Shown here piece by piece: positions 1,771-28,260 of a stretch of DNA of 47,298 bases (position 1 is its first letter; the number at the start of each line of letters is the position of its first letter). Made by a program: the position numbers and the translations under genes. The stretch covers positions 1 through 47,298 of the forward strand of contig CAYOLB010000294.1 in NCBI GenBank assembly GCA_964404675.1, in the 5' to 3' direction. The notes beneath the pieces are model-generated. The model saw only the letters and a program-made list of their open reading frames with translations. It made no database searches and was not told the DNA's origin. The DNA comes from an uncultured Atribacterota bacterium. GTDB taxonomy: Bacteria; Atribacterota; Phoenicimicrobiia; Phoenicimicrobiales; Stramentimicrobiaceae.

Positions 1771-3414
1771 TTGGCTAATTGGGATAGTGCAATGGTTAAA
1801 ATAGCAGGAATATTTCTTGCTGGTTTATTAATGGTATTATTAGGGAAATTAGACCAAAAGAAAAAACTTGCTCCCTATATAAAATTGTCATTACAAGCTG
1901 TTATTGCTTTATTGGTTATATTTGTTGGGGTCAGAATTGAGTTTTTAAGAGGCTCTTCAGGCGATTATTGGTATTTAGCCAATTTATCGATTCCTATCAC
2001 AATTGTGTGGTTGTTGATAATTACTAATTCTGTAGGCCAGACTGATGAATTAGGTGATATTACCCCAATTATAGTGTTTATTGCCTCCATAACATTTTTA
2101 TTTGTATCAATCTTCCAGCGGCAAGGTCTTCTCCTAGCTGAAATCTTATCCGTTGGTCTATCAATTTTTTCTTTAGCTATTATTTACTTGAGAAAAAAGA
2201 AAGTAAATTTTAAAACTAATACTAATTATTATTCAATTTATTACATGTTCTTTGGCTTCATGTTAGCGATTATTGCAATTGTAGGGGTATTAAAGAGTAC
2301 CGCTGCTTTGACCTTGCTGACACCATTTTTAATTTTGGGGTTACCTATTATTGATACTTCATATTCTTTTATTGCTGGTTATCTAAGAGACGATTATTTG
2401 GGATCAGTTAATGAAAGTAAATTAAGACAGCAATTGATAAGCCAGGGATTCTCTTTGAGAGGGGCAAATATGCTTATTGTATTCACCTGCATTTATTTAA
2501 GCCTTATTGCAATTGTAATATCAATATGGGAGGATGTTTATCTATTTAGTATAATGATTGGGATTGGATATCTGACTTTTTATTGGTTAAAACAACAAGT
2601 CCTGCAAGGGAAAAATATTATTCATATTGACGAAAAGAGGCAAAAGGTAAGCTTGTTCGGTGTACCTATTGATAGGATTAGTGCTCAGAAGGCTATAGAA
2701 AGGCTTGATAATTTTGTTTCTCAAAGAAAACCTAGTTTTGTGGTAACTCCTGATACTCTTGCAGTCTTACGGGCACGCAAAGATAAAAAATATTTAGACA
2801 TTACCAAGAAAGCAGATTTAGTAACCCCAGATGGTGCAGGCATACTCTGGGCTACTGCTACTTTAGATGTGCCATTGATTGAACGTATTACTGGAATTGA
2901 TTTAATAAATAAGATATGTACAGCAGCTGTTGAAAGGGATTATAAGCTTTATCTGTTAGGTTCAAGAAATGAGGTAATTGAGAAAGCTGTAGAAAATTTA
3001 AAAGAAAAATTTCCAGGAATTAATATAGTTGGATATTATCATGGCTATTTTAATCAACTTGCTCCCAATGGTGAAGAAATCGCAAAAAGTGAAAGTGAAA
3101 TCATTAAGGAAATAAAAGAAAAGAAACCGGATTTCTTATTAGTAGGGTTGGGTGTTCCAAAACAAGAGCTATGGATATCAAAACATAAAGATGAATTAGA
3201 TGTCCCAGTATGTATCGGTATTGGAGGAAGTTTTGATGTTCTCTCGGGGAAAATACCCAGGGCTCCAATATGGATGCAAAATCACGGTATGGAATGGATA
3301 TTTAGATTAATGAAGGAGCCAAAAAGATTAAAGCGTGTTGTAGCTTTGCCTTATTTTATGTGGCTTATATTTTTGGGGAAGATTGAATTGTTTTTCCGAA
3401 CCGAAGGTCAATAA
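1771..3414 (+). CDS. Fusion of a degenerate MraY/WecA/TagO-like membrane domain and a WecB/TagA/CpsF glycosyltransferase
   Basis: GGAGG RBS and TTG start; polytopic N-half with LAPYIKLSLQ and PIIDT motifs; C-half has PDGAG, ERITGIDL, VGLGVPKQE, GIGGSFD, RAP..MQ..GMEW.FRL. Confidence 0.85.
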   Translation: MANWDSAMVKIAGIFLAGLLMVLLGKLDQKKKLAPYIKLSLQAVIALLVIFVGVRIEFLRGSSGDYWYLANLSIPITIVWLLIITNSVGQTDELGDITPIIVFIASITFLFVSIFQRQGLLLAEILSVGLSIFSLAIIYLRKKKVNFKTNTNYYSIYYMFFGFMLAIIAIVGVLKSTAALTLLTPFLILGLPIIDTSYSFIAGYLRDDYLGSVNESKLRQQLISQGFSLRGANMLIVFTCIYLSLIAIVISIWEDVYLFSIMIGIGYLTFYWLKQQVLQGKNIIHIDEKRQKVSLFGVPIDRISAQKAIERLDNFVSQRKPSFVVTPDTLAVLRARKDKKYLDITKKADLVTPDGAGILWATATLDVPLIERITGIDLINKICTAAVERDYKLYLLGSRNEVIEKAVENLKEKFPGINIVGYYHGYFNQLAPNGEEIAKSESEIIKEIKEKKPDFLLVGLGVPKQELWISKHKDELDVPVCIGIGGSFDVLSGKIPRAPIWMQNHGMEWIFRLMKEPKRLKRVVALPYFMWLIFLGKIELFFRTEGQ

Positions 3415-12467: not shown

Positions 12468-13760
12468 ATGTTTTCGGATAAAGTTATTATTAATGTAAAA
12501 GCTGGCAAAGGTGGTGACGGAGCGGTAAGTTTTCGAAGGGAGCGTTTTATACCTAAGGGTGGTCCTGATGGTGGTGATGGTGGAAAGGGTGGAGATGTCT
12601 TCATCCAGGCTGATTCACATACCAAAACTTTAATACAGCTTTATCGTAAACCACATTGTAATGCAGAAGATGGTGAAAGAGGGAGAGGACAGAAAAAAAA
12701 TGGCAAGGAAGGCCAGGATTTACTGCTTCAAGTACCATTAGGCACTATTGTGGAAGACCTGGAGAAGAATAAAATTGTTGCGGATCTTTCTAATGCAGGA
12801 GACAAGATATGTGTAGCCAGAGGTGGAATGGGAGGAAAAGGGAATTACCGTTTTAGGGGTTCACAAAGACAGGTGCCAAACTTTTCCCAAAAAGGAGAGC
12901 CAGGAGAAGAAGTAAAGCTTAAGCTGAATCTAAAACTTATTGCTGATGCAGGTCTTGTAGGATTTCCAAATGCAGGTAAATCAACTCTTCTTGCGCGTGT
13001 TTCTGCTGCTAAACCAAAGATTGCAGATTATCCTTTTACTACTGTTGAGCCTAATTTGGGAGTAGTGCAAGTTGATGAGGAGAATTCCTTTGTTCTTGCT
13101 GATATTCCTGGTCTGATAGAAGGTGCTCACACAGGTGTTGGAATGGGTACACGTTTTTTAAAACATATAGAGAGAACCAAAGTGTTGGTACATCTTATTG
13201 ATGGTGTCCAAATAACATCAGAAAACCTTTTTCAAAATTATCAAATTATTGAAAATGAATTGACACAATATGCTAATTTTTTATTAGAAAAGGAAAAAGT
13301 TGTGGTTATAAATAAATGTGACTTACCAGAGGTAGCAAGAAAAAAGGAATGGATAAAAGAAGAATTTTTGAAAAAAGGTATTGATGTTTCCTTTATTTCA
13401 GCTGTACAGGGACAGGGTGTGCAGGAGCTTATTTATAAATTATATAATTTGATTATTGCCGTAGATACAAAAGAAAGAAATAAAGAACAATCAGTGGAAA
13501 AACAAAGAGAGGAAAAGAAAATACCCGTTTATAAATATAAACCTGAATTTACCATTAAAAAAATGAATGATTTCTTTATTGTTGAAAGTGAAAAAATGGA
13601 GAAAATGGTTAACCAGTATGATTTAGATAATCCCCAGGCGTTACAATATTTGCAAAAAATACTTAAGAGTATAGGTATAGAAAAAGCTCTAAAAAGAGAA
13701 GGCATAACTGAAGGTGATCGAGTGAAAATTGGTGATAAGGATTTTTACTTTTACTCATAG
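12468..13760 (+). CDS. obgE: GTPase ObgE/CgtA with C-terminal OCT domain
   Basis: Gly-rich Obg fold, GFPNAGKS, YPFTT, DIPG, NKCD; C-terminal GIEKAL..GI.EGD.V.IG. Confidence 0.96.
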   Translation: MFSDKVIINVKAGKGGDGAVSFRRERFIPKGGPDGGDGGKGGDVFIQADSHTKTLIQLYRKPHCNAEDGERGRGQKKNGKEGQDLLLQVPLGTIVEDLEKNKIVADLSNAGDKICVARGGMGGKGNYRFRGSQRQVPNFSQKGEPGEEVKLKLNLKLIADAGLVGFPNAGKSTLLARVSAAKPKIADYPFTTVEPNLGVVQVDEENSFVLADIPGLIEGAHTGVGMGTRFLKHIERTKVLVHLIDGVQITSENLFQNYQIIENELTQYANFLLEKEKVVVINKCDLPEVARKKEWIKEEFLKKGIDVSFISAVQGQGVQELIYKLYNLIIAVDTKERNKEQSVEKQREEKKIPVYKYKPEFTIKKMNDFFIVESEKMEKMVNQYDLDNPQALQYLQKILKSIGIEKALKREGITEGDRVKIGDKDFYFYS

Positions 13761-13790
13761 ATACTGTATAATATTATGTAAAATAAAAAA

Positions 13791-13816
13791 TTTACTTTTT
13801 TGTTAAAAAAAGTAAA
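13791..13816. terminator. AT-rich inverted repeat between obgE and the TPR gene (possible terminator or operator)
   Basis: TTTACTTTTTT-GTTA-AAAAAAGTAAA, 11-bp perfect arms. Confidence 0.3.
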
Positions 13817-13844
13817 GAATATTAAAAAATAAATTAGGAAAAAA

Positions 13845-16800
13845 ATGGCTTCTTTATCTATTCTTATTAAAAAATACATTGATAAGCAAACTAGATTTAA
13901 TTTACTAAATTGGGCAATTGTTGCTGTAATAATTTTTTTGTTATCAGGAGCAAACGCTCTTGGTTCAGAAGAACCCTCTATTGCGGTTTATTATTTTCAT
14001 AATCAAAGCGGAAAAGATGATTTGGAATGGTTAGAAGAAAATTTGGCTGTTTCAATGGGTCAAACATTATCAAAAATTGAACAGATATCTTATATTCCAT
14101 TATCCGAAGCGGAGAGTATTGCTGATTATCAGCAATACAAAGATATGGTCCAGAAGAAAGACTCAATGTTGTTCGGCCAATTGGCAAATTTGCTGCAAGC
14201 TGATTTAATTTTTTCGGGTAATTATTACCAGGAAGAAAAAGACCAGATTGATCTGGACCTGTTAATGTATTCGACCTCCGAGGGTTACTTGGTTGAATTT
14301 CGTAGAATGTCAGCTCCTCTGGACGATTTGTACGATTTAAAGGAAAGAGTAATCAGGATTATTTTGCAGGAATCCGGTATTGATCCAGACAGAGTTCCTT
14401 TGGAGACTATTATAGAAGCTGATATTGTTGAAATAGAGACAGATGTAGCCGAAGAAGAGGTGTCTGATATATTTACCATCGAAGAACCTCTTGTCGAAGA
14501 ACCTCGCAGGGACCTTGCACAAATTGCATCGCTTTTTCTGGATGGGCAATCAGCTTCAGAGTATTATCAGAAAGCAATAGAGTTAAAGGAAAAAGCTATT
14601 TTGGAATATGGGGGAGCTGATTATCCCAGTAAACCTTTGTGGAATGAGGCAATTCAGAACGCAACAAAAGCTGTTGAGCTAGACCCTGATTTTGCTGATG
14701 GTTATTACCTGTTATATGAGATTTATCGAAAAACAAAGTGGATTGCCCGGGAAATAGAAAGTCTGGAACTATATGTTGATACTGTGCAGAGAACTGGTAA
14801 ACAGGTTAATAATACAGAATTTTCTATATTACTTACCAGGCTTGCTCATTTAAAATATAATGCCGGTGAAGTTTCATCTGCTATCTACTATTTAGAGGAG
14901 GCAATTTCATATAATAAAAACGATATTGATGCCCGGTCATATTTAGTGAGGATTTATTATGATACCGGACAGGAAACAAAGGCGTTGCAGCAGGCAGAAG
15001 AGATTAAAAGAATTCAACCGGAAAGCATTGAACTGGACTGGTTTGCAAGTAGAACACAAAGAATATCAATATTTGGCCGGCAAGCCTTTGAGAGTTATGA
15101 AAAAGGGTATAATTCTTATATTGTAAAAAATTACAGTGAGGCTATAAATTATTTAGAACAGGCAATTAGTATGGCTCCTGCATTTAAAGATGCCCATTAT
15201 TATTTAGGTTTAAGTTATTATCACTATGGAAATTTAGATGGAGCTATTCGTCATTGGGAAGAGGCCGTCAGGTTAGACACATTCGACAATCATGCCAGGA
15301 TTTATTTAAACAAAGCGCTTGAAGAAAAGGAATACGGGAGAGATGCTGTCTGGAAATTTAATGAGGGTTATGAGCACTATATAGCCGGCGAATACGAGGA
15401 CGCTTTAGCCGAATTCAAAGCATCCACTTACTTGAATCCTAATTTTGAAAAAGCAAGAACGTTTTTAATGCGCACATATTTCCATTTAGACCGGATGGAT
15501 GAATATGCGGAAGAGAGAAGAAGAATTGGGGAAAACGTTGAATATACTGGAGGAATGGAGAAAGAGTTTTACCAGTTAGGCTATGATTTTTACTCAATAG
15601 GCGATTACAAGGTAGCATTAGAAAAACTAAGGGAATCATTAGAGATAAATCCTGATTATTTAGAGGCAAGGTTTTTGATTGCTGAAACCCTTTACCAGCT
15701 AAAAGATTATCATGAAGCAAATGTTCATTATAAATATATAATTGATAATTACCCCAATAGTGAGTATTATGAAAATTCTTTATTGGGAAGTGGGTGGTGT
15801 TTATATTTACTTGAAGAATATCCCCAATCTGAAGAGTATCTAAAGCTGTTGATAGATAATTTTCCAAAAAGTTCTTTATATGAAGAGGGGATTTATAAAT
15901 TAGGAAGAGTCTATTTTGTTCAGGAGAAATACCCCCTTACAATACAGCTTTATGAGAACTTATTAGAATCAGAATCATTGGAATATGATTTGGTAGAGAT
16001 AAAATATGTCTTAGGTCAATCATATTTCTGGTTAGAAGACTATGAACAGTCAAAAAAATATCTGCTGGATATTATAGAGAATAATACAGATTTTAAACAG
16101 ATAGACGAGACAAGGTATTATTACAGCTTTACATTATTCAGGGAAGAAAAATATAACGAGGCTATGGGTGTTTTAGAGAAGTTGCTGGAGAAGGAAAACA
16201 GTCCAGTAGAAAATGAGGCAGCATATCTTTTAGGAAGGACATTGCTTGAGCAAAGAGAATATGATAGAGTTATTGAAATTAATAGTACTTTGATAGAAAA
16301 AGATGCAGTAGAAGAATACATATTGGAAAGAGCGTTATTTGATTTAGGTTTATCATATTCCAGGAAAGATGATGATGAAAAAGCAGTGCCCTATTTCGAG
16401 CGTGTTATTAAAGAATTTCCTAAGGGGGAACTTGCAGGCTTAAGTAAAATTGAGCTCGCTCAAAGCCTTTATCACCTTGGAAAATACCAGGATTCAATTG
16501 ATGTGTTGGAAAATACAAACACAAAAGAAGCCTGGGAAATTAAACTTGATTCTGCAACAAGACTGGGTGATGAAGAATTATTACTTTCATTATATGAAGA
16601 GGCTGAAGAGATATATCCTAATGGTGATTTATCTGTAGATGGGTTTTGTGCTCTGGCAAAAACACAATTTGAAAGCAATAAGTACCAGGAAGCAATTGAA
16701 ACCTTTAGCATGATTGAAGACATGAATATTACCGATCAGATGAGAATGGAAATAAATTACTGGAAAGGATTAAGTTTTTACAGACTGGCAGATTATAATC

Positions 16801-17561
16801 AGGCTAAAGATAATTTTCAGAAAGTTGATTATTTGGAAGAAAGCGAAATTTCCGCGAGATCTCTATATATGTTAGCTGAAACCTGTTATCAGCAGGCAGA
16901 CTTTAAGTCAGCAATTACTTATTATAAAGATTTTTTACAACACTACAGCACTCATTCATTAAGAGAACATGTCCAATACAGTATTGCCTGGAGTTACTTA
17001 AATGATAAAGATTATCCTAATGCATTGTTATCATTCCAGGAGCTCATACAGCAATATCCTGATAGTTCATTTATAGAGGAAAGCGTTTTTCTTACAGGAA
17101 AGATAAATTATTTAATATCTGATAATAATAATTCTAAGACCAAATTAACAGATTTTATTGATAAATATCCGAATAGTGAATATCTGGAAGAAGCTATCTT
17201 TATTATTGCTCAGGTTGAACTGGAAGAACAGCAATGGATTGACAGTATATTGTACTTTGAAAGGCTAATAAATAATTACCCTGATAGCAGATATATGCCC
17301 GGTTCTCTTTATGGGCTTTGTTTGAGCTATTATAAAAAAGAAGAATATAACAAGGCTGCTACTGTAGGTGAAAGGTATTTAAATTCCTACCCGGATGGTA
17401 CTTTTAAATGTGATATACTGTATATCTCTGCTATCAGCCAGCAGGAATTGGGAAACATAGATGAGGCATATAATTATTACACAAAGATTGTAAATGATTG
17501 TCCTGACAGCAGCTATTTAGACAGTGCTCAAGAACAATTAGATTATCTTAATACATTATAA
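13845..17561 (+). CDS. Large exported TPR protein with N-terminal TolB_N/CsgG-like domain and CpoB/BamD-like repeats
   Basis: Signal peptide; IAVYYF.N.SG..DL.WL...LA..LQADLIFSG.Y alpha/beta domain; many TPRs, the later ones with YP.S...EEA motifs. Confidence 0.8.
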   Translation: MASLSILIKKYIDKQTRFNLLNWAIVAVIIFLLSGANALGSEEPSIAVYYFHNQSGKDDLEWLEENLAVSMGQTLSKIEQISYIPLSEAESIADYQQYKDMVQKKDSMLFGQLANLLQADLIFSGNYYQEEKDQIDLDLLMYSTSEGYLVEFRRMSAPLDDLYDLKERVIRIILQESGIDPDRVPLETIIEADIVEIETDVAEEEVSDIFTIEEPLVEEPRRDLAQIASLFLDGQSASEYYQKAIELKEKAILEYGGADYPSKPLWNEAIQNATKAVELDPDFADGYYLLYEIYRKTKWIAREIESLELYVDTVQRTGKQVNNTEFSILLTRLAHLKYNAGEVSSAIYYLEEAISYNKNDIDARSYLVRIYYDTGQETKALQQAEEIKRIQPESIELDWFASRTQRISIFGRQAFESYEKGYNSYIVKNYSEAINYLEQAISMAPAFKDAHYYLGLSYYHYGNLDGAIRHWEEAVRLDTFDNHARIYLNKALEEKEYGRDAVWKFNEGYEHYIAGEYEDALAEFKASTYLNPNFEKARTFLMRTYFHLDRMDEYAEERRRIGENVEYTGGMEKEFYQLGYDFYSIGDYKVALEKLRESLEINPDYLEARFLIAETLYQLKDYHEANVHYKYIIDNYPNSEYYENSLLGSGWCLYLLEEYPQSEEYLKLLIDNFPKSSLYEEGIYKLGRVYFVQEKYPLTIQLYENLLESESLEYDLVEIKYVLGQSYFWLEDYEQSKKYLLDIIENNTDFKQIDETRYYYSFTLFREEKYNEAMGVLEKLLEKENSPVENEAAYLLGRTLLEQREYDRVIEINSTLIEKDAVEEYILERALFDLGLSYSRKDDDEKAVPYFERVIKEFPKGELAGLSKIELAQSLYHLGKYQDSIDVLENTNTKEAWEIKLDSATRLGDEELLLSLYEEAEEIYPNGDLSVDGFCALAKTQFESNKYQEAIETFSMIEDMNITDQMRMEINYWKGLSFYRLADYNQAKDNFQKVDYLEESEISARSLYMLAETCYQQADFKSAITYYKDFLQHYSTHSLREHVQYSIAWSYLNDKDYPNALLSFQELIQQYPDSSFIEESVFLTGKINYLISDNNNSKTKLTDFIDKYPNSEYLEEAIFIIAQVELEEQQWIDSILYFERLINNYPDSRYMPGSLYGLCLSYYKKEEYNKAATVGERYLNSYPDGTFKCDILYISAISQQELGNIDEAYNYYTKIVNDCPDSSYLDSAQEQLDYLNTL

Positions 17562-17678
17562 TGATGAATATTTTATTAAGATAGAAACATAACAAGATAA
17601 TTTTCAATACAAGAATAAATTAAGATTTAGAAAGAAATTAAAAAATTATTTATAGATAATAGAGGAGGCAACTATTTA

Positions 17679-18341
17679 ATGTTTGAACTATTTATTAAGG
17701 GCGGTTTCTTAATGTACCCGATTTTCTTCTGTTCTTTACTGGCTATTGCTATTTTTTTTGAAAGAATGTTTTACATGAAGAGTATAAAAACATCAACAAG
17801 AAAATTTGGCAATAGAATCAGTGATTTAATAAGAAAGGGGAACATTAATTATGCAATATCCGCTTGCAGAAAGAATATTACACCCATATCTCAGATAATT
17901 CTGGCAGCTCTATTAAAATATGGCAGTTCAAGGGATGAGATAAAGGAGACTATTGAAGACACTGCCAGACAAGAAGTTGATATATTAGAGAGAAATTTAC
18001 CTATCCTGGCGACTGTTGCCAATATTGCCCCATTATTAGGACTTTTGGGGACAGTTTTTGGTATGATAAAGGCGTTTCAAGTTGTTTCAGTTGTAGGTGT
18101 AGGTAATCCTGAAGCCTTAGCCGGAGGAATATCGGAAGCATTGCTGACAACTGCATTTGGTCTTTCTGTGGCTATTCCAACTATTGTTGCTTACAATTAC
18201 CTTACCCATCGGGTAGATAGGCAGATTAAGGAAATGGAATCCACATCTATAGAAATCCTGGAATTATTAACTATTGAAAAAGAGACAAAAGACGTTAAAG
18301 AGGAAGGTGTAAAAATAAATGAAATTCTCTCACGCCAATAA
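17679..18341 (+). CDS. exbB: MotA/TolQ/ExbB proton-channel protein
   Basis: GGFLMYPI, APLLGLLGTVFGMI.AF, LAGGISEALLTTAFGL..AIP; GAGGAGG RBS. Confidence 0.9.
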   Translation: MFELFIKGGFLMYPIFFCSLLAIAIFFERMFYMKSIKTSTRKFGNRISDLIRKGNINYAISACRKNITPISQIILAALLKYGSSRDEIKETIEDTARQEVDILERNLPILATVANIAPLLGLLGTVFGMIKAFQVVSVVGVGNPEALAGGISEALLTTAFGLSVAIPTIVAYNYLTHRVDRQIKEMESTSIEILELLTIEKETKDVKEEGVKINEILSRQ

Positions 18342-18729
18342 AAAAAGCATTGGTTTTGATATAACACCTCTAATAGATGTGGTTTTTTTATTACTTATCT
18401 TTTTCATGCTGACTACTACCTTTATAAATGTTGAAAGCGGTGTAAAAGTAGACCTTCCGAGCGGAGATTTTGCCGCAGTTGAAGAAAGGCAAAACCTTGT
18501 TGTTTCCATTACTGAAAATAATGTTCTATATCTAAATAACATGTTAATTAATCCTAATAATTTATCAGAACGCATAAGAGAAGAAATTGGCAATAATGTA
18601 GATTCATTGGTTGTATTGGAGGCAGATCAGAATATTAGTCATGGAAAAGTGGTTAGGGTAATGGATTTAATAAAAAAAGGCGGAGCTGAAAAAATTGCTA
18701 TTGCAACCAAGCCAATTGAAGAAAATTAA
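18319..18729 (+). CDS. exbD: ExbD/TolR biopolymer transport protein
   Basis: DITPLIDVVFLLLIFFM with the conserved Asp; VDLP; LEAD....HG.VV.VMD; overlaps exbB. Confidence 0.9.
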   Translation: MKFSHANKKSIGFDITPLIDVVFLLLIFFMLTTTFINVESGVKVDLPSGDFAAVEERQNLVVSITENNVLYLNNMLINPNNLSERIREEIGNNVDSLVVLEADQNISHGKVVRVMDLIKKGGAEKIAIATKPIEEN

Positions 18730-18770
18730 ATAATACTATTGAAAAAATTGTTAGAAAACAGGGTGACTAA

Positions 18771-20264
18771 TTGAAAAATACTATTGGATATAGAGCAAAA
18801 AGAAGAAAAGTAAAGCAAAAAAGTTTTTTAGGTCGTTCTTTTTTGATTTCTGTGATTGTAAATTTATTGTTTATATTTGCCTTCAGCAATTTAATTACCT
18901 TTGATATATTTAATTTACCACCGGAGGAAGAGATTATTGAAGTAACTATGATGGAGTTACCTGCCGCTAGAACACCTGTATCACAGAGACCAGAAATAAT
19001 TAGGGAAGAGCCTCTTGCAGAAATGGATGTGAAGCCTAAAGTCGATCCAATGATGCCCGAACCAGCCCAAATCCAGGAGGTAGAGACACATCACCAGGAA
19101 GAGGAACAGGTTGCAATTGCAGAAAGCACCCCAAAGGTCGAGGTAAAAGTTCCAGAGATTGAAATTCCTGCTGAGGAAGATATTGCCCCAATAAAGGAAG
19201 AAATTGCATTGAGACAGGATGTACAGATAGCAGCAAGGGAGATTGACCCATCTTTAACCAGCAGGAGGGAAATTGAAGGTCAAATGTTGGAAGAAGGCAG
19301 TTATGAAATGCAGGCAAATTTAGGCATGGAAGGTCGTGAGCGGATTGAGTCAACATATGGTTCAGTGGTGACTCCCGGAAGAATAAGCAGTTTGCCAGAT
19401 GCAATTGAAAAAGAATCACCTTTTGGCAATAGACCATTAGCGGTTATGATTGACAATGCCAGTTTTGCCCGCCCCCAAAGCGGTTTAGACAAGGCAGATA
19501 TTGTTTACGAGGTACTGGCTGAAGGTGGAATTACCCGATTTTTAGCTATATATGCAACCAAGGAAGCTGACAAAGTAGGTCCGGTAAGAAGTGCCAGACC
19601 TTATTTTATAACCAAAACATTAGAACATAATGCTATTTATGTTCATGCTGGGGAGAGTCCGGATGCGGCAAGGTTTATTCGTGAAGAGAGAATAGACGAT
19701 ATTAATGAATTAGTCCATTATCAGCCATTCTGGAGAAGTCAGGATCGCAATCCACCCCATAATCTTTATGCCTCCACTGAACAGCTTAGAGATGAGACAA
19801 GAAGATTAGGCTATATTGAAATGGTACACAAGGGAGACTACCAGTTTGAAATTGACAGAGAAGAAGTCCTTACAGGTAGAGATGCTCAGAAAATTGACAT
19901 TAGATATCATAATGACTATACGGTTAGCTATCAATATATATCGGATGCGCAAAGATATGTTCGGTTTATTAATGGTCAACCTCACCTGGATGCAGAGACT
20001 GGCAAGGTTCTTGATGTAAAAAATATTATCATTCAGCATAGTGAAAGAAAAGTTTTAGATGAAGAGGGAAGGTTGTCAATTGATTTTATTGGAGAAGGTA
20101 GCGGGCTGATTATATTTAACGGTAAGTCTGAAGAAATTACCTGGGTAAAAGAGAGTCTTCAATCTAAAACGCTTTTTTATAATAAAGAGGGTAATAGATT
20201 AGCCATACAACCAGGAAATGTATGGATACAGGTAATTCATCCTGATACTGAACTTAGCTATTAA
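18771..20264 (+). CDS. TonB/TolA-like membrane anchor and Pro/Glu-rich stalk fused to DUF3048 (YerB-like) domain
   Basis: Basic N-terminus, single TM with S-x3-N, Pro/Glu-rich linker; from ~19430 RPLAVMIDN..ARPQSGL..ADIVYE..AEGGITRF..GPVRSAR. Confidence 0.8.
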   Translation: MKNTIGYRAKRRKVKQKSFLGRSFLISVIVNLLFIFAFSNLITFDIFNLPPEEEIIEVTMMELPAARTPVSQRPEIIREEPLAEMDVKPKVDPMMPEPAQIQEVETHHQEEEQVAIAESTPKVEVKVPEIEIPAEEDIAPIKEEIALRQDVQIAAREIDPSLTSRREIEGQMLEEGSYEMQANLGMEGRERIESTYGSVVTPGRISSLPDAIEKESPFGNRPLAVMIDNASFARPQSGLDKADIVYEVLAEGGITRFLAIYATKEADKVGPVRSARPYFITKTLEHNAIYVHAGESPDAARFIREERIDDINELVHYQPFWRSQDRNPPHNLYASTEQLRDETRRLGYIEMVHKGDYQFEIDREEVLTGRDAQKIDIRYHNDYTVSYQYISDAQRYVRFINGQPHLDAETGKVLDVKNIIIQHSERKVLDEEGRLSIDFIGEGSGLIIFNGKSEEITWVKESLQSKTLFYNKEGNRLAIQPGNVWIQVIHPDTELSY

Positions 20265-20267
20265 AAT

Positions 20268-20300
20268 TGTATTGAGTGTCGAGTATGTAGCCATCGAGTC
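20268..20300. repeat. Degenerate 7-mer repeat (AGTATyn family)
   Basis: TGTATTG AGTGTCG AGTATGT AGCCATCG AGTC. Confidence 0.45.
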
Positions 20301-20438
20301 TAAAAATAGTAAGAATTAAAACACTAATAATATTTTAGAATATAATGGATAGATTGATGATAGTTTTATACTTAATGCTCAAATTTCTGTAGATAATTGC
20401 CATAATCTTTTATTTCTAATTAAATATAAGGTAGATAT

Positions 20439-21335
20439 ATGGATCATCAGAAGGAACTAATAGAGAATTTTTTGGATTACCTATCTCTTGAGAGAGGCCT
20501 GGCTTATAATACAATTATTTCTTACCGCTATGATTTATTAAAATATTATGATTTTATTATTTCAAAAAAACATATTACATTTGAAGACCTGAATCGCGAA
20601 ATAATTAATGATTATTATCATTATTTAGGAAGTATTAATCTTGGGATTAATTCTATATTTAGGAATTTAGTGGCACTAAAAATGTTTTATCGCTTTTTGT
20701 TTACTGAGGAATTTACTAAAAAAGACCTAACAAATTTAATAGACTTTCCCAGGATGAGAAAAAAATTACCAATTGCCCTTAGCCTAAAAGAATTAGATAC
20801 AATATTAGATGAAAGAAATTTTAAAGGGATACTAGGGAAAAGAGACCAGGCGATTATGGAATTACTTTACGCAACTGGAATGAGAGTTACAGAATTAATT
20901 AGCCTTAAAAGAAATGATATTAAGTTGGAACATAGACTCCTTAAATGTACGGGAAAAGGTAATAAAGAAAGATGGGTTCCTTTCACTGATAGGGCACATG
21001 ATAGTTTGTTTTATTATATAAAATATATTCGAACTCGTCTTATAAAGAAAAGAGATACAAATTTATTATTTATAAACAACCATGGTAATCCAATTTCTCG
21101 CCAAGGAGTTTTTTATTTAATAAAAAATTATGCAAAAAAATCAGGAATAAAAAAGAAAGTAACACCACATACATTCAGACATACCCTGGCAACGCATTTG
21201 ATTGAAAATGGGGCAGATTTAAGATCTATTCAGGAATTATTGGGTCATTCTGATATTTCAACTACCCAAGTTTACACTCATGTTAGCAGAAAATGGGTTA
21301 AGGAAGAATACTTTAAAGCATTTCCAAGAATATAA
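20439..21335 (+). CDS. xerD: Site-specific tyrosine recombinase XerD
   Basis: ERGLA.NTI.SY..DL, ELLYATGMRV.EL, GKG.KER, HTFRH, LLGH, TQVY; precedes punA as in Firmicutes. Confidence 0.9.
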   Translation: MDHQKELIENFLDYLSLERGLAYNTIISYRYDLLKYYDFIISKKHITFEDLNREIINDYYHYLGSINLGINSIFRNLVALKMFYRFLFTEEFTKKDLTNLIDFPRMRKKLPIALSLKELDTILDERNFKGILGKRDQAIMELLYATGMRVTELISLKRNDIKLEHRLLKCTGKGNKERWVPFTDRAHDSLFYYIKYIRTRLIKKRDTNLLFINNHGNPISRQGVFYLIKNYAKKSGIKKKVTPHTFRHTLATHLIENGADLRSIQELLGHSDISTTQVYTHVSRKWVKEEYFKAFPRI

Positions 21336-21344
21336 AAAAATAAT

Positions 21345-21375
21345 AGTATAGCGTATTCAGTATACCGTATAACGT
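21345..21375. repeat. 7-mer tandem repeat (MGTAT core)
   Basis: AGTATAG CGTATTC AGTATAC CGTATAA CGT. Confidence 0.6.
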
Positions 21376-21417
21376 GAAGAAAAAGAATATAGAAAGATTA
21401 AAGGGCAAGATGCAATT

Positions 21418-21441
21418 AGTATCGAGTATCTAGTATTGAGT
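21418..21441. repeat. 7-mer tandem repeat (AGTATyn family)
   Basis: AGTATCG AGTATCT AGTATTG AGT. Confidence 0.65.
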
Positions 21442-21498
21442 CCAAAGATAAATAAAAGTTACAAGGAAAACTAAAAACTTTTATGTTGGAGGGAAATA

Positions 21499-22326
21499 AT
21501 GGAAGAAATATTAGCTAAAATTGAAGAAAGTATTAAATCAATACAAGAATATAGTAGGGTAAAACCAGAGATTGCTATTATCCTGGGAACTGGTCTGGGA
21601 GAGCTAGCTAACCAGATTGAGGACAAGGTGAGCATACCTTATAAAAATATTTCTAATTTTCCAATTTCTACGGTTCATGGTCATAGCGGAAACCTTGTAT
21701 TGGGAAAATTAGAGGACAAAAAGGTAGTTGCCATGCAGGGAAGGTTTCATTTCTATGAAGGATATAGCATGAAGGAAATAACCTTTCCCGTCAGAGTGAT
21801 GAGAAAGATGGGGGCAAAAATTATTATAATATCTAATGCCGCTGGTGGCATGAATCGTTTTTTTAAGAGAGGTGATTTAATGTTAATCACTGATCATATT
21901 AATCTTATGGGTGATAATCCTTTAATTGGCGCAAATGAAGATAAATTAGGCTCTCGTTTTCCAGATATGTCTCAGGCATATGATTTAGAATTGTTGAAGT
22001 TAACTGAAAGGGTTTCGTTGGAAGAAGGAATTTTAATACACAAAGGAATTTATGCGGGTTTACCTGGGCCAATGCTGGAGACTCCGGCAGAATATCGTTT
22101 TTTGATAAAAATTGGAGCTGATGCTGTTGGAATGTCTACGATACCAGAAGTTATTGTTGCCAATCACATGGGAATGCGTGTCCTGGGATTATCCTGTATT
22201 ACTGATCTGGCTATCGATGGAGCAGTTGAGAAGGTTCAATTCCAGGAAATTCTTCAGGCTGCAGCGAAATCTGAACCAATTATGAGTCGTGTTGTGAGAA
22301 AGGTAATAAAAAATATTGTTAGTTAA
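21499..22326 (+). CDS. punA: Purine-nucleoside phosphorylase (trimeric type)
   Basis: ILGTGLG, STV.GH.G, MQGRFHFYEG, NAAGG, DHIN, GP.LETPAE, GMST.PE. Confidence 0.9.
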   Translation: MEEILAKIEESIKSIQEYSRVKPEIAIILGTGLGELANQIEDKVSIPYKNISNFPISTVHGHSGNLVLGKLEDKKVVAMQGRFHFYEGYSMKEITFPVRVMRKMGAKIIIISNAAGGMNRFFKRGDLMLITDHINLMGDNPLIGANEDKLGSRFPDMSQAYDLELLKLTERVSLEEGILIHKGIYAGLPGPMLETPAEYRFLIKIGADAVGMSTIPEVIVANHMGMRVLGLSCITDLAIDGAVEKVQFQEILQAAAKSEPIMSRVVRKVIKNIVS

Positions 22327-26382: not shown

Positions 26383-28260
26383 ATGATACCTTTTAAAATA
26401 GAAAAAAACAAAAGAGAATTTTACAAGTTAATAATTTTATCTTTTTTATTGTTATTATTTTTGTCAATAATAACCTCGAATATTTCCGCTAAAGAAGAAT
26501 TTATTTTATTAGATGAAATTCATTCTGGCATGGAAGGAATTGGTAAAACTGTTTTTTCAGGAACAAAAGTTGAGGAATTTAATGTTCAGGTAATTGATGT
26601 AATTGCCGGTACAGGAATTGATGATGACTATATACTGGTTAAATTAAGCGGAGAGAAAATTGATAATAATGGCGGAATTTCTGCAGGAATGAGTGGCACT
26701 CCAGTTTATTTAAAAGAAAGATTAGCAGGAGCAATTTCCCATGCCTGGGAAATGAGTGAACATAATCTCTGCCTTGTGACACCAATTGAAAGAATGCTTA
26801 AGCTATTTAATTATATTAACTCTGATGGTAAAGTCGAGATAATTAATGATACAGATATTGGTGTAGTTTCTATTCCCTTAAATAATAGTTTGAAAAATAA
26901 TATTTCTGAAAAGATACCAGAATGCGAAGCTGAGTTTTTAGCTAAATCAAATGATGATGAAATTTATTCCTTGAGTTTTAGACAGATAAAATCCCCTTTA
27001 TTGATTAATGGTTTTAATGAAAGGGCACTGAGAAATATTGAGAGCAGCATAAATAGGCAATATAAACAGGAAATTGTAAAGATTTCGGATTTTCAAAAAT
27101 ATAATTCTATTCCGGATATTAATTCAGAGACAAGTACCATAGTTCCTGGTTCCTCAGTAGGTGTACAGTTATCTGCAGGAGATGCTAACGTGCTAACTAT
27201 TGGAACAGCTACCTACTGTAAAGGTGAGTACTTATTAGCTTTCGGTCATCCTTTTCTGCATTCCGGAGATGTTTCTTATTTATTATCTGCAGTTTACATA
27301 TACCACAGTTTTCCCAGTATTGTAATGCCATTTAAGTTAGGTTTCCCTTATAAGTTAGCAGGTATGGTTATACAGGATAGAGATGCCGGGATTTTGGCTT
27401 TTTTAAATAATTTTCCAAAGGTAGTATCATGTAAAGTGAGTGTTGGTGATATTGATAAAAATATTAATATTCAAAGGGGAACAAAAATAGTTACTCAAAA
27501 TGACTTAATAGAGAGCATTACCAGTGCCTTGATAATCGAAGCAATAGATAAGACAATTAATAGGATAGGACAGGGGACAGCAACCGTGCATCTTGAATTG
27601 CTTGCGGAAGAACCTGATGGGGAAATGATATATGAAAACATGTTTTTCAGTAAAGATGATATTGCAATACAATGTAGTAGCGATTTTGAGGAAATAATGG
27701 ATTTAGTGACGAATAACTATGGGGAAACGATTACCTTAAGTGAGATAAAAGTTGACATTAAAATAAGTGAAGATAATAAAAGTGCAATGATAACCGATGT
27801 CAAATTAAATAAAGAAGAATATCTACCAGGGGATATCATTGAAGCGGACATAATTATTAAACCATTTCGGAAACCAGAGGAAAGTAAATCTATAAAGCTT
27901 GAATTGCCTGATAACATGGAATCAGAAGAAGTAATATTAATTATCAGGGGAGGTACTTCAAGAGATTCACTAAATGATAAATCAGCCATATCTCAAGAGA
28001 AAGAAAAATACCTATTAAGTGGATGGGAAGACATTAAAAAGCAATTTCAAGAAAAAGTCAAGAATAATCAGGTTGTTGCTGAATTAATTCCCATAAATCA
28101 ACAAGAGCAAATATCATTAACCAATGAAGATAAATTGGTAGAGTCAACTAATAATGAAATAAAAAGAATTGTGGATACTAATTTTATTATTGAAGGATAT
28201 CATGAAACATATCTGAGTATTAAAAATGGAAAAAATAAAAATAAGGATAGAGATTTATGA
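26383..28260 (+). CDS. Exported SpoIVB-like peptidase S55 domain protein
   Basis: Signal peptide; GM.G.GKTVF.G..VE.F.V, GISAGMSGTPV Ser motif, GT.TY...LAFGHPF. Confidence 0.82.
   Translation: MIPFKIEKNKREFYKLIILSFLLLLFLSIITSNISAKEEFILLDEIHSGMEGIGKTVFSGTKVEEFNVQVIDVIAGTGIDDDYILVKLSGEKIDNNGGISAGMSGTPVYLKERLAGAISHAWEMSEHNLCLVTPIERMLKLFNYINSDGKVEIINDTDIGVVSIPLNNSLKNNISEKIPECEAEFLAKSNDDEIYSLSFRQIKSPLLINGFNERALRNIESSINRQYKQEIVKISDFQKYNSIPDINSETSTIVPGSSVGVQLSAGDANVLTIGTATYCKGEYLLAFGHPFLHSGDVSYLLSAVYIYHSFPSIVMPFKLGFPYKLAGMVIQDRDAGILAFLNNFPKVVSCKVSVGDIDKNINIQRGTKIVTQNDLIESITSALIIEAIDKTINRIGQGTATVHLELLAEEPDGEMIYENMFFSKDDIAIQCSSDFEEIMDLVTNNYGETITLSEIKVDIKISEDNKSAMITDVKLNKEEYLPGDIIEADIIIKPFRKPEESKSIKLELPDNMESEEVILIIRGGTSRDSLNDKSAISQEKEKYLLSGWEDIKKQFQEKVKNNQVVAELIPINQQEQISLTNEDKLVESTNNEIKRIVDTNFIIEGYHETYLSIKNGKNKNKDRDL

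Follow-up and report, generated by a model that had tools for sequence, protein, structure and literature searches.

Among the proton-motor-driven periplasmic force transducers, TonB and TolA carry in their membrane anchor a motif termed SHLS (Ser-x3-His-x6-Leu-x3-Ser), and according to the accessible text of PMC12215075, its Ser and His touch the first transmembrane segment (TM1) of ExbB/TolQ in cryo-electron microscopy structures. ExbD binds a strand known as the D-box, in which a hydrophobic-polar-hydrophobic-polar-hydrophobic-hydrophobic-polar pattern is flanked by prolines (PMC10907165). TonB/TolA-like 'motor-driven force transducers' tipped with a vWA domain are described in the accessible parts of the study of Williams-Jones et al. 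(2025, Mol Biol Evol msaf138, PMC12204202). Here we report on a protein in which an N-terminal module of the TonB/TolA type is joined to a tip of the DUF3048 family, whose founding protein is YerB of Bacillus subtilis (PDB 2psb). It is encoded at 18771-20264 on the + strand of a 47,298-nucleotide (nt) stretch of DNA from an uncultured Atribacterota bacterium (contig CAYOLB010000294.1 of assembly GCA_964404675.1, positions 1 to 47,298), which we refer to as the window. This architecture is supported by the data presented below, and we consider it likely that the protein is an Atribacterota-specific force transducer coupled to a proton motor and equipped with a YerB-fold tip. A TonB-like protein in which DUF3048 replaces the TonB C-terminal domain had already been proposed from the letters of the window alone (referred to below as the original prediction); the motor-gene context, which that proposal did not mention, is decisive for the TonB/TolA-like reading.

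To judge from the accessible text of PMC12204202, the vWA-tipped transducers resemble the Atribacterota protein in several respects: in both, the transmembrane helix bears a motif of the SHLS type, a motor box is predicted, the linker is disordered or rich in proline and has some 100 residues or more, and the C-terminal domain is globular and not related to TonB/TolA. Both are encoded next to genes for a tetratricopeptide repeat (TPR) protein and for tolQ-like and tolR-like proteins. They differ in the tip (vWA there, the YerB/DUF3048 fold here), in the anchor (His there, Asn here), in the tolR-like genes (a heterologous pair there, a single gene here) and in their distribution, since the vWA-tipped proteins are found in Proteobacteria, PVC, Bacteroidetes and Rhodothermaeota and the fusion in Atribacterota. 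The main text of PMC12204202, as far as accessible, contains neither 'DUF3048' nor 'YerB' and names Atribacteria just as a phylum with TonB. A full-text literature search with 'DUF3048' found no treatment of the system, and a search with YerB and subtilis gave nothing relevant among the matches listed. The searched literature thus covers the vWA-tipped analogues and not the DUF3048-tipped protein.

The open reading frame (ORF) starts with TTG, 4 nt downstream of the sequence AGGGTGA, and encodes 497 amino acids (aa). As stated in the original prediction, a Lys/Arg-rich N-terminus, one transmembrane segment and a Pro/Glu-rich linker of about 170 aa precede a full DUF3048 domain placed from about 19430 onwards, and the two peptides quoted there, EEIIEVTMMELP and PKVEVKVPEIEIP, are present in the ORF. 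The basic cytoplasmic N-terminus (residues 1-22; 18771-18836) contains nine Lys/Arg and no Asp or Glu. It is followed by the sole hydrophobic segment of the protein (SFLISVIVNLLFIFAFSNLITFDIF, residues 23-47; 18837-18911), which is assigned as transmembrane by its composition, is modelled as a helix at residues 22-39, and holds Ser27-x3-Asn31 (18849-18863) where the SHLS motif of TonB/TolA has its Ser-x3-His. The linker (residues 48-215, 168 residues; 18912-19415) consists of Glu (20%) and Pro (10%) to a large extent, and contains the D-box-like strand IEVTMME (residues 56-62; 18936-18956), which has Pro50/Pro51 before it and Pro64 after it. The DUF3048 N-terminal domain (residues 216-348; 19416-19814; PF11258, E 1.1e-48, 165.6 bits; identical coordinates in the genome search) and DUF3048_C (residues 375-486; 19893-20228; PF17479, E 2.5e-29, 102.4 bits) both lie far above the curated cut-off of 25 bits, and a Pfam scan of the entire protein (E <= 0.01) returns nothing else. 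The full-length AlphaFold2 (AF2) model, which was built from 19 orthologues, is of low confidence (predicted local distance difference test, pLDDT, 44.6) and was used for the transmembrane helix alone; it shows no secondary structure in the linker.

Ser27 and Asn31 are invariant in an alignment of 19 sequences with 50-94% identity (alignment A1), and Ser-x3-Asn is found within the transmembrane segment of 19/19 intact orthologues from genome contigs. These include a class of only 36-41% identity in which the remainder of the helix differs while the motif is kept; the conservation bears out the S-x3-[HN] anchor of the original prediction, and to judge from the alignments the motif is more than a chance occurrence. 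According to the accessible text of a preprint (bioRxiv 10.1101/2022.09.26.509584), His20 of E. coli TonB can be fully replaced by Asn, a point that the original prediction had stated correctly. Because Asn is reported there to be fully functional, Asn31 can be viewed as a probable functional variant rather than as the strict SHLS motif, and the Atribacterota proteins would present a natural, phylum-wide case of Asn at the SHLS His position, in line with the E. coli mutagenesis. When the fusion protein is aligned pairwise with P0128, a TonB-like::DUF3048 protein of metagenomic origin, Asn31 stands opposite a His (E 6e-6). P0128 (696 aa; loci L093, L094 and L132, on contigs with a GC content of 0.41-0.44) itself has a TonB-like N-terminus with Ser-x3-His, a D-box-like strand and a Lys/Glu-rich linker of about 370 aa that leads to DUF3048. 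Past the membrane, residues 56-62, situated between Pro51 and Pro64, are an exact fit to the published D-box pattern, and Val58, Glu62 and Pro64 are invariant in alignment A1. Between the anchor Asn and the RPQ motif of DUF3048, 16 orthologues have a span of 198-206 residues even though identity is just 36-40%, a narrow range that would fit a spacer under length constraint.

The gene forms part of a block in which the order is TPR giant, ExbB-like, ExbD-like and DUF3048-tipped gene, all on the + strand. The ExbB/TolQ-like proton-channel subunit (220 aa; 17679-18341) matches the Pfam family MotA_ExbB (E 6.2e-36) and scores 120.3 bits with the NCBIfam model tolQ and 75.4 bits with exbB, both below the equivalog cut-offs. 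A Ser in its TM1 is present in 25/25 sequences, and the GTVxGM and TTAxGL..P motifs of TM2 and TM3 are kept. Its gene overlaps by 23 nt with that of the ExbD/TolR-like subunit (136 aa; 18319-18729; Pfam ExbD, E 9.5e-31; NCBIfam tolR 79.7 bits and ExbD_2 59.1 bits, likewise below the cut-offs), in which the transmembrane Asp20 is invariant in 20/20 sequences. The fusion gene starts 41 nt downstream of the ExbD-like stop codon. The block is opened by the giant TPR protein (1238 aa; 13845-17561), in which a hydrophobic segment at the N-terminus is combined with repeats of the CpoB/YbgF type. The protein matches many Pfam TPR families and scores 205.6 bits with the NCBIfam model TIGR02795 (tol_pal_ybgF), against a cut-off of 90.1; no Pfam family matches its first 260 aa (13845-14624), which are made up of the hydrophobic segment and a non-TPR region behind it. 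A scan for promoters and terminators across 13400-21600 gave counts no higher than those in shuffled sequence, with no terminator within the block, and is not evidence of an operon.

Synteny of the fusion gene with this dedicated motor pair holds throughout the phylum. Among 21 Atribacterota loci taken from species-representative genomes, an ExbD-like gene lies directly upstream in 19, the other two ending at a contig edge, and the TPR gene lies upstream in 16, the other five being without upstream DNA. ExbB or ExbD was found within 6 kb of DUF3048 in none of 59 loci from other phyla (phmmer, E <= 1e-4), a sample that comprised Bacillota including Halanaerobiales, Patescibacteria, Chloroflexota and others. 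The co-occurrence with exbBD that the original prediction named as a check is thus found in Atribacterota and is absent from the 59 loci sampled elsewhere, and its TonB-like reading is strengthened by the position of the gene directly after exbB/tolQ-like and exbD/tolR-like genes across the phylum, by the D-box-like motif and by the His of P0128 opposite Asn31.

In the mechanism that we propose, the fusion protein would serve as the output subunit of an envelope machine driven by the proton motive force. Its transmembrane helix would dock via Ser27 and Asn31 on the pentamer formed by the ExbB/TolQ-like subunit, and strand 56-62 would be captured by the periplasmic domains of an ExbD/TolR-like dimer, much like the D-box of TonB. 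A spacer of fixed length (about 150 residues) would then span the periplasm with the DUF3048 domain at its far end, and the motor could thereby pull on, or shift, whatever this domain binds, with the giant CpoB-like TPR protein as a likely periplasmic partner. Physical coupling to the motor, the transmission of force and the nature of the target are what we infer in this scheme.

Several observations weigh against this proposal. The strict Ser-x3-His of TonB is not present in the anchor, where the Ser is kept and the His position is taken by the invariant Asn31; the first 110 residues are not significantly similar to the canonical TonB of Atribacterota themselves (E 0.81); and the NCBIfam TonB match is marginal, at 18.7 bits (E 0.0013) where the cut-off is 315, and falls within sequence of low complexity. 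P0128, the one related fusion that bears a His, has no ExbB or ExbD gene in the 750-1180 bp of DNA upstream of it, a distance too short to conclude from, and disorder of the linker is putative, as the full-length AF2 model is poor. Contact between the fusion protein and the motor is likewise putative. Prediction of a complex between two copies of residues 40-136 of the ExbD-like protein and residues 42-100 of the fusion protein reached a score of 0.41, the best of three controls reaching 0.00; this mark is attained by 116/157 solved complexes and 2/215 mismatches, and a pass at scores of at most 0.60 is seen for just 18 of the 157 solved complexes, together with both passing mismatches. At least 55% of the contacts are common to the runs, with a partner pLDDT of 44 or higher. 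No interface was obtained, and the support from this prediction is weak; as an ExbD:D-box complex is already solved, the pass may show no more than likeness to that structure. Finally, the DUF3048 proteins found outside Atribacterota have about 340-400 aa and are either lipoproteins or signal-anchored, much as the original prediction had it for the family in general, and most of them are motor-free lipoproteins of single-membrane bacteria, so that the domain itself needs no force.

An alternative explanation is that of a plain membrane-anchored DUF3048 enzyme or binding protein, kept close to the inner membrane by its signal anchor and long spacer, with the adjacency to the motor genes reflecting co-regulation of envelope genes and not mechanical coupling. 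The lipoproteins and signal-anchored proteins in which stand-alone DUF3048 occurs elsewhere do have acidic low-complexity spacers, and Halanaerobiales lipoproteins with Glu-rich spacers reach 460-497 aa; the window is a core envelope neighbourhood, with genes for MreD, PBP2, RodA, MurA, MreB and LCP, and the complex prediction is weak. However, a plain anchor would not hold an invariant polar Ser-x3-Asn in the membrane across lineages of 36-41% identity, nor would it hold a strand with the D-box pattern or keep the length of the spacer within nine residues, and the motor genes adjoin the fusion gene in every informative Atribacterota locus but in 0/59 of the outside loci. We therefore regard simple anchoring as unlikely and favour a force transducer coupled to the adjacent motor.

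The system is separate from the Ton system of the phylum. The fusion protein resembles E. coli TonB (PMC12215075 for the cryo-electron microscopy structure, PMC10907165 for the D-box) in its basic N-terminus, its single transmembrane segment with Ser-x3-(His/Asn) and a D-box-pattern strand past the membrane; the Pro/Glu-rich spacer and the gene position beside exbB/exbD-like genes are also common to both. It differs from TonB in lacking TonB_C (PF03544), the C-terminal domain to which the Ton box binds, in having Asn for His and in showing no co-occurrence with TonB-dependent transporters (TBDTs). In the same genome, TonB_C sits on another contig (C402) as part of a canonical arrangement, a short contig on which it adjoins another ExbB-ExbD pair, and there is one TBDT (C402 L003/L005; C85 L006; GC content 0.33-0.40). 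Canonical Atribacterota loci (L087-L092) have the order TBDT, TonB, ExbB, ExbD, and their TonB has Ser-x3-His in 6/6, as judged by eye; the fusion system is paralogous to, and separate from, this canonical TonB. One may ask whether the fusion protein is a replacement TonB that energises TBDTs in a phylum mostly without TonB_C, given its TonB-like N-terminal features, its exbBD-like context and the presence of TonB_C in just 19/81 Atribacterota genomes, mostly of the family to which the window belongs. Yet all 19 of these genomes also have a TBDT plug domain, on the same contigs, plugs occur in just 22/81 genomes, and among the 59 genomes with neither TonB_C nor plug, 51 carry the full-length fusion, including four single-contig genomes. 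Because the protein persists in these 51, the fusion system does not serve TonB-dependent import, and the target of its tip is not a TonB-dependent transporter. The idea of a replacement TonB is largely refuted, and we hold it to be very improbable.

Like tolA, the fusion gene follows a tolQ-like and a tolR-like gene, has a CpoB-like TPR gene in its cluster and is a core gene in an envelope and division neighbourhood; both systems are independent of TBDTs. Moreover, the best NCBIfam matches of the motor subunits are the TolQ and TolR models, with scores above those of ExbB and ExbD, and the cut-off of tol_pal_ybgF is exceeded by the TPR protein, so that the block could be taken for a divergent Tol-Pal system in which TolQ, TolR, TolA and CpoB are present and TolB and Pal have diverged past detection. 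Against this stands the absence of any Pfam match to TolA C-terminal domain III, or to the TonB C-terminal domain, from a protein that has DUF3048 alone in this place, and the failure to find TolB_N and OmpA/Pal-type domains in the genome of the window, which is 89.8% complete. The motor subunits also remain under the equivalog cut-offs, the TPR protein differs from that of the Tol cluster in that it has 1238 aa and is encoded first, and curated Tol-Pal systems are, in the accessible text of PMC12204202, restricted to Gracilicutes. A divergent TolA is in our view improbable; the best reading of the sequences is that the fusion protein is neither TonB nor TolA. As Omp85 is present in the genome, an outer membrane is expected.

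The fusion gene is a near-universal core gene of Atribacterota. Its closest proteins in a collection of 5.8 billion have about 494-499 aa and are labelled Atribacterota by their source. Among the 81 sampled Atribacterota genomes, 77 match the protein and 71 do so over its full length (a match that starts no later than residue 22 and reaches at least residue 449), four of these being single-contig genomes; the other ten comprise four with pieces of the long form, two with a short paralogue alone and four without a match, which are 60-90% complete. A basic envelope function is probable for a core gene of the phylum. This distribution also bears on the possibility that a TonB-like 5' part and a DUF3048 gene were joined in assembly, for which the unusual architecture and the fragmentation of the metagenome-assembled genome (404 contigs) are the only arguments. 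Since the full-length protein is found in 71/81 genomes, the gene is not a chimera, and contigs from other runs span the border between linker and DUF3048 (X4, 17752-19458; X5, from another study, 19239-19533) with no joints reported. The chimeric join that the original prediction wished to see excluded is refuted, and its probability is negligible. In run X4, high-depth contigs end at 19458 and restart at 19548 within DUF3048, while those of X1 and X2 are continuous; the break at 19459-19547 is possibly due to strain variation that interrupted assembly.

The DUF3048 tip was modelled with confidence (pLDDT 93.9) from an alignment of 64 sequences. It matches YerB of B. subtilis by sequence profile (E 5.7e-58) and by structure (2psb; Foldseek TM-score 0.87; Z 37.3, root mean square deviation 1.9 Å over 274 residues, 35% identity), with which it shares the two-domain fold in its C-terminal 280 residues and all family-invariant residues. 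YerB-type proteins are lipoproteins or signal-anchored, with short spacers and no motor genes nearby, whereas here a TonB/TolA-type module is fused to the domain. In a Foldseek search of the PDB (E <= 0.001), 2psb was the single match and gave no functional lead; VIA-align over 48,161 chains placed the next match after 2psb at Z 3.0, with no informative relative, and nothing usable came from the ESM Atlas once the DUF3048 families were set aside. All 12 of the residues that are invariant in the family, as defined over 64 sequences including the window protein, are kept (N229, A242, E247, E251, R256, G270, P271, R273, S274, R276, G294 and G451), and the biochemical activity of DUF3048 is for this reason probably retained.

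In a maximum-likelihood tree, eight fused Atribacterota domains make up a single clade (99/97) among Bacillota sequences, which suggests one fusion event early in Atribacterota. The same genome encodes a stand-alone DUF3048 paralogue (G000:C366:3361-4290, - strand, locus L002; ORF of 391 aa; about 32% identity to the fused domain), which the tree places with Patescibacteria on a long branch, apart from the fused copy. The short stand-alone paralogue is also found in many genomes of the two closest families.

The DUF3048 family as a whole has 7,693 cluster representatives at E <= 0.001. Fusions of other kinds occur in it, with a beta-lactamase-family serine hydrolase domain, with PEGA, with a dockerin that precedes two DUF3048 units in tandem and with TPR repeats, and a further group consists of secreted proteins of 550-690 aa with a helical N-terminal part and a Pro-rich linker (for all of these, P0155, P0166, P0200, P0210, P0121 and P0157 are listed). 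The neighbours of stand-alone DUF3048 genes in loci outside Atribacterota (111 flanking ORFs) are housekeeping genes, and the one L,D-transpeptidase among them makes no pattern. In Clostridia/Thermoanaerobacterales, Tepidanaerobacter and Halanaerobiales, stand-alone DUF3048 is found in a run of dgkA (DAGK_prokar), cdd, era and recO, often directly 3' of dgkA or of a DUF881 or CNNM gene. In Bacilli it adjoins the TrpR-like yerC and response regulators, and in Patescibacteria the genes for ribosomal protein L25 and PrmC.

The original prediction took the fusion as a clue that DUF3048 binds a cell-wall or outer-layer target on which force would be exerted, which is plausible. What the tip grips is a matter of guesswork, and our guess is peptidoglycan or a wall-linked polymer. 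A wall-associated target is favoured over an outer-membrane protein for the sole reason that stand-alone DUF3048 is common in the single-membrane Bacillota and in Patescibacteria. We tentatively suggest, as a possibility about which we have considerable doubt, that the block is the Atribacterota counterpart of Tol-Pal, a machine powered by protons whose tip holds on to peptidoglycan or a wall-linked polymer rather than an outer-membrane protein and thereby keeps the outer layers of an unusually layered envelope attached, or coordinated, in growth and division. If this were true, DUF3048 at large (about 7,700 cluster representatives, with a structure that dates from 2007 and came without a function) would be a module that binds or modifies the cell wall. 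A motor-coupled fusion protein would add a third type of tip, after the TonB/TolA type and vWA, to the proton-motor-driven periplasmic force transducers, and would provide a first mechanistic context for the orphan DUF3048/YerB family. Its host belongs to a deep-branching, double-membraned phylum in which Tol-Pal was not detected and most genomes are without a Ton system.

Two further ORFs of the window may be mentioned. Directly 3' of mreB, an ORF of 625 aa (26383-28260, + strand) has as its only match a partial one to the SpoIVB peptidase S55 family (residues 43-121, E 1.6e-7). An ORF of 547 aa (1771-3414, + strand) matches Glycos_transf_4 in part at residues 12-135, has the whole of a WecG/TagA glycosyltransferase domain at residues 348-523, and is possibly a fusion of two enzymes that initiate wall-polymer synthesis.

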